Assembly: GCA_951406725.2 (NCBI GenBank)
Contig: OX597819.1
Span: 47,554,001 to 47,618,000, forward strand
Direction: 5' to 3'
Source of the DNA: Octopus vulgaris
Taxonomy: Eukaryota
DNA length: 64,000 nucleotides
In this document: positions 45,706 through 52,966 of the stretch, piece after piece
Numbering within the stretch: the stretch's first letter is position 1
Layout of the letters: each line of letters starts with the position of its first letter
Notes under the pieces: generated by a model
Seen by the model: only the letters and a program-made list of their open reading frames with translations
What the model was told of the DNA's origin: nothing
The model's database searches: none
Position numbers and translations under genes: made by a program

Positions 45706-45707
<2 letters not shown>

Positions 45708-47429
45708 TAAATACCCAGAAGAGATCCCAGGATGTATCAACCACAGATTCATAATTGCAGCACTCCAATTTATCCTACTGAATAACTATTTCATGTTCGA
45801 TACAGTTTAATATCGACAAAAATATGGAATTGCAATGGGAACCAGAGATGCTCCAGTGATTGCAAACCCTGTAATGGGCTACCTAGAATTTAAAATATAC
45901 CAACCATCACTACAAAAATATGGCACCTTATTTCATTGCTATTTAAAGGAGAACTGGAAGAGGTATTTGGACAATTGCTTTATACTTTGGAAAGATAGCA
46001 TGGACAAACTCCTTGATTTCAAAATGTTGCTTAACAATATTAATAGCAACATTCAATTCACCATGGAGCACAGCAGTAAACAACTCCCTTTTCTTGACAT
46101 CCAAATTAGAATAGTCAACACCTACATCGAAACAGACATCTTCTATAAACGTACAGATTTTAAAAAATACCTATTATTCAACTCATGGCACGCCAAACAC
46201 ATAAAAATTAATATACCTTATAATCTAGCGAGAAGAATCTGTACCATAGTTTTAGACACCTATACTCGTGAATGAAGAATCCTTGAACTCAGATCAATAC
46301 TAATCAATAGACATTACCCAATACTATTAATGAATAATGGTATTAAACAAGCAAAGGAAATAGATACACTAACATTAAGGGAATTCAACCGAAATACTAC
46401 ACTAGACTTAAAAATACCCCCATACATCTCCTCACATAACTCTAGAAACAATGAAGCCTTCAACATTATCGTCCAAAACCTACCCATCCTCACAGAAGAT
46501 AAAACAAAATTATCAAAAGCAAAATGCAACCTAAATCATTGAAGAAAATATTAACCAGTGCAAAACTATATCCATTAACAACAGAACCAAAAGTGGAAAA
46601 ATGTGGTCGACCTAACTGTGGCACATGCCCCCACCTTTTGGAGGGTTCAGAGTTCCACTTTAAACAAGATGAAATATTTAAGATTAAATCAAATTTCACC
46701 TGTGCCTCGGAAAACCTAATCCATGCCATTACATGCTTAGGGTGTGGTAATCATTATTTTGGCCAAACAGGAATATCACTCCGTTGAAGAACCACTCTCC
46801 ACAAAGAACAAATCTGCCACCCACAATACAGACAGATACAGCTCAGTGAACACATAGAAAGGTGTGCTACGAACTTTAATCCTAATTTCCTAATTTCCCC
46901 CTTCTATCAATGTTTACAGAACACTTATACATACAGCAAAGAATGAATAAAGAATCAACTTTCATCAATAAATATCTTCCACAACTCAATATGAACACAT
47001 AACATTATACAGAACACTACTAACCTTTCAATTAATACCACTAACTCCTATACGTCCCATACACCATTCACATTACAGATTTATATCTGCCCTAATTGCA
47101 CTGAATCCAGAACTACTTACCTCTCTTACACATAATCTTTTTACTCAGGGACCAGTCGACCCGAGAGCGTTTGGTAATTGGCGCGCATTTAAAGCAGTGA
47201 ACAGACATTTTATGAAACCGGTATGCCTTTGGATCTCTTTAACAATTCACAATAATGACTTTTATTACTTTTATCCCTACCTCAGTTCATCTAATTGTAT
47301 ATATCTATCATTACTTTTCATAAAAAGCCTTTACGTTTTTGATTTCCAATGTGCATTTTCACTTTTTTCTTCTTACTTTCCCGTTACATTTCCACGTGTA
47401 TTTTCTATTTTCTTTTTGTAAAATATGTC

Positions 47430-52082: not shown

Positions 52083-52284
52083 ATTCTCTTTCTAATGTTG
52101 GCTGTCCACTCTGCAGAGTGGTTGGTGTTAGGAAGGGCATCCAGCTATAATGACCCTGCCAAAATAGACACAGCAGTCTGGTGCAGGCTCCTGCTTGGCC
52201 AACTCCTATCAAACCATCCAACCCATGCCAACATGGAAGGAGGACAATGATGATGATACACACACACACACACATGCATGTATG

Positions 52285-52345
<61 letters not shown>

Positions 52346-52352
52346 GTATATA

Positions 52353-52927
52353 TATTTTACTAAGCCCTTTTATATATTGTAATAATTTGAATTCGCCTTA
52401 AATGGTCCCTTTGCATACTGAACACTTGGTGAAATTGATTAATAATTAATTAATTTTACCCTCAATTGTTGAAATTATAATTAATCTCCCTCTAATTAAT
52501 GCTTCGGATTTTACCGAAATAAGCAGAGTGTTTGCTGATTTTAACCCACGCTGGTGGAAAGGGGAGAACAGAAATTCTTCACTTGCATGTTTGAGTTTGT
52601 TGGCACTGTTAGTTACGAGCAGATCTTCGAAAGCGATGAGAAGCCGAAAGAGTATGCTCTCACTTTCAGTGTTTTCAAATCCAAACCAAGGAGTTTCTGA
52701 GCTGATGATAGAAATGTCGTGTTGACTAATCTTGAAACGTACGTTCTCAAATAACCTTTGCATTTGATTTTTTGATGTCTGTACCCCCAAACTTTCGTGA
52801 GTTGAGTTGAGCAAGCACTATATGAGAGAGATTTTCTTTAAGTATTAGAAATGGTTTTTAAAAAAGTTTTTTAGCTGCTATTTCTAATGAGTTCAGTATG
52901 CGGCAAAGTAATTTATTTTACTAAGCC

Positions 52928-52938
<11 letters not shown>
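52353..52938 (+). mobile_element. terminally redundant 561-bp non-coding unit with a hammerhead ribozyme (retrozyme/solo-pLTR-like)
   Basis: 25-bp direct repeat TATTTTACTAAGCCCTTTTATATAT at 52353 and 52914; (TA)n on both sides; CpG retained. Confidence 0.7.
52698..52749 (+). ncRNA. type I hammerhead ribozyme
   Basis: TGAG-CTGATGA-[tAGA..GTCG tgt TGAC..TCTt]-GAAA-CGTACG-TT-CTCA; stem I TGAG/CTCA, palindromic stem III, GUU triplet, imperfect stem II. Confidence 0.7.

Positions 52939-52966
<28 letters not shown>

Follow-up and report, generated by a model that had tools for sequence, protein, structure and literature searches.

Retrozymes and Penelope-Like Elements

The non-LTR retrozymes of metazoans are low-GC tandem non-coding units, each with one type I hammerhead ribozyme (HHR), a short palindromic helix III and a strongly self-paired fold, and they coexist with Penelope-like elements (PLEs) (PMC7229834; 10.64898/2026.07.22.740005). 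Monomers span 150–450 bp in one description (PMC7229834) and 51–972 bp in the other (10.64898/2026.07.22.740005). Palindromic helices III favour HHR dimers (PMC4209133), and an axolotl ribozyme with a U.U mismatch, HHR_Amex2, is active, its cleavage being weak in the monomer and stronger in the dimer (PMC7229834). Mobilisation of animal retrozymes by PLEs through circular RNAs is a hypothesis drawn from co-occurrence and from the likeness of the units to the pLTRs of PLEs (PMC7229834, PMC8557442).

EN+ PLEs, for their part, target microsatellites and leave an inverted 5'-truncated arm, two 3' end sites and a 30–40-nt tail that is often found at one end only, with an HHR upstream of the start sites (PMC8557442, PMC11167929). 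Two internal start sites, extension of both DNA strands and a predicted enzyme dimer have been described; in vitro, no start-site difference between the strands was observed, so that study does not show two different sites paired on one RNA (PMC11167929). How the inverted, one-tailed insertion arises is a standing question (PMC7229834, PMC8557442).

The Octopus vulgaris family described here is of a kind already known; its long tail, its strict end rule and a chimera with 28S rRNA are new. It brings insertion-level evidence to the question above, namely a near-absolute pairing of two different 3' ends, one haplotype per insertion and a chimera at the scissile bond that is present in both arms. 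In its two-armed insertions and its 28S-fused copy, traces of the cutting, joining and copying of these elements are likely preserved. In openly accessible main texts, no cephalopod retrozyme, PLE twin priming or such chimera was found; the supplements of PMC7229834 and 10.64898/2026.07.22.740005 may list related elements.

A Young Non-coding Family in the Octopus Genome

The copy from which the analysis started lies in a stretch of 64,000 nt (contig OX597819.1, positions 47,554,001 to 47,618,000), hereafter the window. Its features, in window coordinates, are as follows.

52281..52352, no strand: (TA)n target, left part
52353..52938, + strand: whole insertion, a single arm made of the monomer plus 25 nt, with its 3' end at site A
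52353..52913, + strand: 561-nt monomer (positions 1–561; position 1 is window 52353)
52353..52377, + strand: 25-mer, first copy, an internal part of each monomer
52376..52388, + strand: site A zone (positions 24–36), putative first internal start of the reverse transcriptase (RT), unpaired in the predicted fold
52479..52483, + strand: site B (positions 127–131), putative second internal RT start
52617..52668, + strand: tip of a hairpin that resembles a hammerhead only superficially; variable, with frequent deletions
52698..52749, + strand: type I hammerhead with palindromic helix III, predicted cut at 52745/52746 (positions 393|394)
52834..52913, + strand: 5' half of a ~200-nt structured module, which continues across the junction into 52353–52483
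52914..52938, + strand: 25-mer, second copy, ending at site A and followed by (TA)n
52939..52964, no strand: (TA)n target, right part, next to a very high-copy SINE-like repeat

Much of what the earlier note had proposed for this copy stands. The 25-bp repeat at its two ends is perfect (52353–52377 and 52914–52938, offset 561), (TA)n flanks the unit on both sides, and the copy is just over one unit long (one unit plus 25 nt, or 1.04 units). It is an A arm of 586 nt truncated at its 5' end inside an AT-rich patch, with no visible stub of a second, B-ended arm beside it, and copying of 586 nt from A would account for the 25-nt redundancy. The unit has a GC content of 34%, contains no credible ORF, as had been stated (the longest stop-to-stop frame is 123 aa), and retains CpG, also as stated, with an O/E of 0.78 against 0.32 for the window, a level reached by 4% of 586-nt windows; the high ratio is attributed to the youth of the copy, whose monomer is 97–99% identical to the best-scoring copies. 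According to structure prediction, the + strand of the monomer folds with a z-score of -6.95, reached by 0 of 100 shuffles, and as a circle it scores -155.8, versus -126.5 for the minus strand.

The 25-mer is partly TA-like and could have been taken for a target-site duplication (TSD) around an unrelated insertion, or for a chance repeat within the microsatellite. It is present, however, at every internal monomer junction, and is therefore not a TSD; moreover, the exact A end of the window copy recurs at 125 genomic places. The TSD reading, which retains practically no probability, was thus ruled out, and the repeat is derived from the element, as the earlier note had it.

The search of the genome (2.8 Gb, 227 contigs) returned 1291 candidate places for the unit, 40 of which were scored and gave 182 matches, the full-length ones at 97–99% identity. 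Counting of exact patterns yielded at least 1409 ends of the B type and, for the 3' half of the ribozyme, 1571 occurrences; the control patterns had 0 hits. In total, 140 loci were mapped: the 40 best-scoring, 47 chosen by their ribozyme along contig C1 (49 loci when two from the best-scoring set are included), 13 chosen by their B end and 40 taken from the 125 places that share the A end of the window copy. Monomers form head-to-tail arrays of up to 12 units per arm, in keeping with the tandem multimers that had been anticipated, and arms exceeding one turn run into the previous monomer.

The unit hence belongs to a young non-coding family and is a non-LTR retrozyme, in agreement with the resemblance first noted: it combines an HHR in each unit, tandem organisation, non-coding sequence with a GC content below 50% and a predicted self-paired fold. 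Its 561-nt monomer lies above the range of PMC7229834 and inside that of 10.64898/2026.07.22.740005; it is also longer than the invertebrate circles described (about 170–400 nt). The RT and GIY-YIG ORF between pLTRs that characterises autonomous EN+ PLEs was not found at the 140 loci. No run on record as RNA was listed for the unit. Assembled contigs from four runs, guessed to be RNA, cover the unit and one spans the monomer junction, although contigs do not distinguish a transcript from genomic DNA, or a circle from an array. In run X12, one contig has its first base at 52746; since its overlap with adjacent contigs is about one word long, it was taken for an assembly branch point and discarded.

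A Conserved Type I Hammerhead Motif

The type I HHR with a palindrome that had been proposed at 52698–52749 is confirmed as a fold. It has a helix I of 4 bp, a complete core, a U.U mismatch at the base of helix II and an 8-nt palindromic helix III whose self-duplex is predicted at -9.8 kcal/mol. In the numbering commonly used for hammerhead cores, the predicted cut falls after 52745. An Rfam search of the unit returned no hammerhead at the gathering score or at E<=10, nor any other relevant family, and the ribozyme call thus rests on anatomy, conservation and junction evidence. The U.U mismatch is shared with the axolotl HHR_Amex2 (PMC7229834).

Across 87 loci selected independently of the ribozyme, 660 locus-level core calls contained 0 variants; variation is absent from all 11 core positions, compared with 171 of the 330 interior ones (p~7e-4). 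Core invariance also holds over 136 loci, while positions N7, 10.1, 11.1 and N17 vary across loci. The ribozyme core is under strong constraint.

Several subfamilies differ at these variable positions. L075, L223 and L336 carry A or G at 10.1, and some carry A at N17; the most numerous subfamily has the U.U mismatch and U17, and a weaker-looking ribozyme may have expanded most. More diverged subfamilies (L316, L317, L305–L313, L322–L335) share the same ribozyme 3' half, and in two of these loci helix I differs and the 5' part of the core is changed, which suggests a third family.

A second HHR-like remnant, placed by the earlier note at ~52617–52659, did not hold up. This segment is the tip of a long predicted hairpin and lacks a full core; none of its 10 core-like positions is invariant, and deletions of 16–17 nt recurrently cross it (23 locus entries among the 140 loci, some possibly counted twice). 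Matched visually to the main core as a possible partner of type II or type III, it was likewise rejected.

Two Fixed 3' Ends and Inverted Arms

Among the mapped loci, 5' ends are scattered along the monomer, whereas 3' ends fall at site A (24–36) or site B (127–135), ~100 nt apart. Free permutation of the ends was ruled out, since 3' ends are fixed; the earlier note had proposed to look for circularly permuted start points. Of the 49 ribozyme-selected loci, 33 are simple two-armed insertions and 12 have a single arm; 3 are complex and 1 is a fragment. In two-armed loci, the arms are inverted with their 3' ends outward, and this structure with fixed 3' ends makes the insertions PLE-like rather than freely permuted.

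Over the four samples (score, ribozyme, B, A), 83 of 85 unique simple two-armed loci combine one A end with one B end, and none combines A with A or B with B; the two exceptions, L074 and L232, have one off-site end each. Of 10 apparent single A arms from the A-selected set, 5 have a stub of a B arm, about 10–15 nt long. The segment from A to B constitutes a ~100-nt 'tail', and the A+B rule is the Penelope 'tail at one end' signature, here together with an inverted 5'-truncated arm and a microsatellite target, as in EN+ PLE insertions; the ends of the arms adjoin (TA)n. In comparison with EN+ PLEs, the octopus unit has no ORF and a tail of about 100 nt instead of 30–40, and its one-end rule is near absolute where theirs applies 'often' (PMC8557442, PMC11167929). 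Insertions that are mostly dispersed, two-armed and inverted, in (TA)n and with two fixed 3' ends do not appear in the consulted parts of the retrozyme descriptions (PMC7229834; 10.64898/2026.07.22.740005).

A Module Shared With a Sister Family, and Resident PLEs

A sister family (L167–L221; 1759 candidates) has a ~592-nt monomer, its own palindromic hammerhead and no ORF that could be found in the monomer; it is older, with copies about 92–96% identical. After removal of 9 overlapping loci, its 46 loci comprised 17 A+B, 0 A+A and 0 B+B, as well as 6 two-armed loci with an unclassified end. The ~200-nt module surrounding sites A and B, at ~70% identity, is all that the two families have in common. 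In 11 sequences from both families, the module shows 94% pairing and 3 compensatory pairs among 42, one of its six helices being unsupported; it is likely the element recognised by the enzyme.

A candidate source of that enzyme is a young, intact PLE of 4.7 kb in the same genome (L151–L161, e.g., L154:744-5960), with a 781-aa RT-GIY-YIG ORF and an overlapping 479-aa ORF upstream. Its zinc-finger motif presumably makes it Neptune-like. This PLE also targets (TA)n and has two 3' end sites 40 nt apart, and both of its two-armed copies (2/2) carry one end of each site; since an autonomous PLE obeys it too, the end rule does not of itself need a circle. The pLTR of this PLE contains a conserved hammerhead-like motif with a palindromic helix III, in which C3-G8 is apparently replaced by U3-A8. 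Between this PLE and the module no sequence likeness could be detected, and the PLE proteins gave no exact match in the collection searched. Neither the monomer nor the module profile matched any of 36 PLE loci obtained from 150 scored among 6136 GIY-YIG candidates; a single match, L138, was rejected as a partner PLE, being a sister retrozyme beside a PLE fragment. The window itself holds, at 45706–46922, a PLE ORF fragment with 54–58% identity to the protein of the young PLE.

Junctions at the Predicted Cleavage Site

At L253, a blind pick from the A-selected set, the A arm and the B arm both begin at position 394, and the identical nucleotide of a GC-rich sequence precedes both arms, without microhomology. 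This GC-rich sequence matches a tandem array of ~18 kb period at 98–99% and is sense 28S rRNA, close to nt 924 in the LSU match. With random breakage, this base would be hit roughly once in 561 cases. The junction indicates that an RNA 5' end coincides with the scissile bond predicted for the hammerhead, establishes the + strand as the RNA strand, and shows that the same junction was copied into both arms; L253 likely preserves the trace of both a cleavage in vivo and a double priming of a single RNA. No other foreign-RNA junction was identified in the 140 loci. An rDNA array of ~18.4-kb period is found at G000:C20:23957571-24073281, besides many dispersed 28S fragments.

Ligation would be the simplest reading of L253, by analogy with the U6/L1 chimeras formed via RtcB (PMC6789731), and an RT template jump could have given the junction instead. 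In L253 as in U6/L1, a cellular RNA lies 5' of a retroelement RNA with a presumed 5'-OH and is then retroposed; in contrast to U6/L1, it is the hammerhead of the element itself that would supply the 5'-OH here, a fragment of 28S rRNA is the partner, and both inverted arms contain a copy of the junction, which is known from one locus (PMC6789731).

Genome-wide, a pattern search for non-native bases preceding 394 produced 16 hits, which belong to 14 loci. Of these loci, 10 have arm ends there (a few being ambiguous owing to microhomology), 3 have deletions ending at the cut (1, 2 and 16 nt) and 1 is a point mutant. A control site gave 60 hits, 50 of which were inspected and revealed 4 junction events and 0 such deletions; the excess of junctions at the cut is thus modest. 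Run-off at the cut was not seen as a general feature: 2 of 154 arm ends lie within 3 nt of it, against 1.9 expected, and 1 of 56 in a further sample.

Template and Mechanism of Insertion

Within a locus, arms differ from one another by 0.5%, against 5.4% between loci, and within-locus divergence was the lower in 53 of 53 loci; likewise, 98 full monomers differ on average by 1.8 within and 11.4 between loci. The two arms very likely derive from one and the same RNA. The inner ends lie no more than 5 nt apart at 10 of 61 loci (p=3e-7) and at 3 of 23 in a further sample, a coincidence that could come from fold-back.

That the element is mobilised by a PLE and carries a functional hammerhead can be held with high confidence. 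The fuller explanation that we favour, and consider probable, is that of a non-LTR retrozyme whose RNA self-cleaves, circularises and is copied into (TA)n by a borrowed, twin-priming Penelope-type enzyme. Arrays would be transcribed on the + strand, and the hammerhead would cut at 393|394, as genomic fossils suggest, probably as a dimer through its palindromic helix III; what may be, by analogy, an RtcB-type ligase would link the 5'-OH end to an end bearing a cyclic phosphate, usually that of the same molecule, giving a 561-nt circle. A putative PLE RT-endonuclease dimer would then bind the ~200-nt module and cut both (TA)n strands, with site A as the starting point for extension of one DNA end and site B for that of the second, in line with the observed end pattern. 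Each RT would run a variable distance, often beyond one turn, before the cDNAs are joined head to head, and an arm that was lost or remained tiny would leave a single arm, as in the window copy.

The element, enzyme and twin priming might be the same and the template linear, made of uncleaved or partly cleaved read-through multimers, or of a cleaved monomer with end-to-end RT jumps, with DNA-level duplication lengthening the arrays. Insertion of an Anolis PLE in vitro was unaffected by HHR mutants (PMC11167929), and 8 of 9 Xenopus retrozyme dimers showed no cleavage (10.64898/2026.07.22.740005), both of which would suit such a template. So would the variants that recur periodically in some long arrays (period 4 in L049, period 2 in L062, also in L047 and L067), which hold 21 multi-copy partial variants; periodic variants do not come from a single monomer circle, and they fit oligomeric templates or later block duplications in these arrays. 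Two further loci point the same way: the arms of L336 differ at several sites, representing a different haplotype, and part of this locus is duplicated together with its own flank, while L284, although its start is at the cut, extends across an intact ribozyme. On the other hand, variants matched by register between arms are almost lacking. Of the rare variants at positions covered at least 3 times, 22 are common to all turns of both arms, 54 occur singly and are missing from their register mate, and 1, which lies in a homopolymer, is register-matched, a pattern that favours a monomer bottleneck such as a circle. The 291 crossings of the cut in 140 loci, none with a deletion, and the rarity of run-off there also count against a linear template. 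The strong constraint on the ribozyme core and a predicted fold that pairs sequence from either side of the cut likewise speak against a linear template, which we hold to be unlikely; that the usual template is a circle seems reasonably probable. L090 also shows a periodic variant pattern, and such patterns fit dimer-to-tetramer templates or block duplication.

Since all insertion features are PLE-like (PMC8557442) and Xenopus retrozymes resemble pLTRs (10.64898/2026.07.22.740005), the unit could also be the truncated pLTR end of an autonomous PLE, with tandems that are partial repeats and not a self-propagating non-coding family, and a rare ORF-bearing master might exist among more than 1400 loci, 140 of which were sampled. 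However, no arm enters an ORF or other shared non-monomer sequence at the 140 loci, where arms longer than one turn repeat the monomer up to 12 times, 26 of 30 single arms checked adjoin (TA)n at their 5' end, the 36 PLE loci gave no match, and the sister family has a monomer of its own without an ORF. This origin is accordingly most improbable, and we retain, as the probable reading, the PLE-mobilised retrozyme copied from a circle.

A wider proposal, put forward tentatively and with somewhat less than an even chance of being right, is that a dimeric Penelope enzyme acting on one circular RNA at two fixed sites 100 nt apart, with both target ends rolled round the circle simultaneously, explains all inverted one-tailed PLE insertions, the 28S-fused copy being a trapped ligation intermediate that reveals germ-line cleavage by the hammerhead and ligation by the host; the family would then record a complete retrozyme cycle. 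As a test system the family is compact: its RNA measures 561 nt, its start sites are mapped, its target is defined, and the genome also encodes an intact enzyme that is a candidate partner. At L270, position ~8 directly adjoins 393/394, a structure such as closure of a broken monomer into a mini-circle of ~176 nt would leave.
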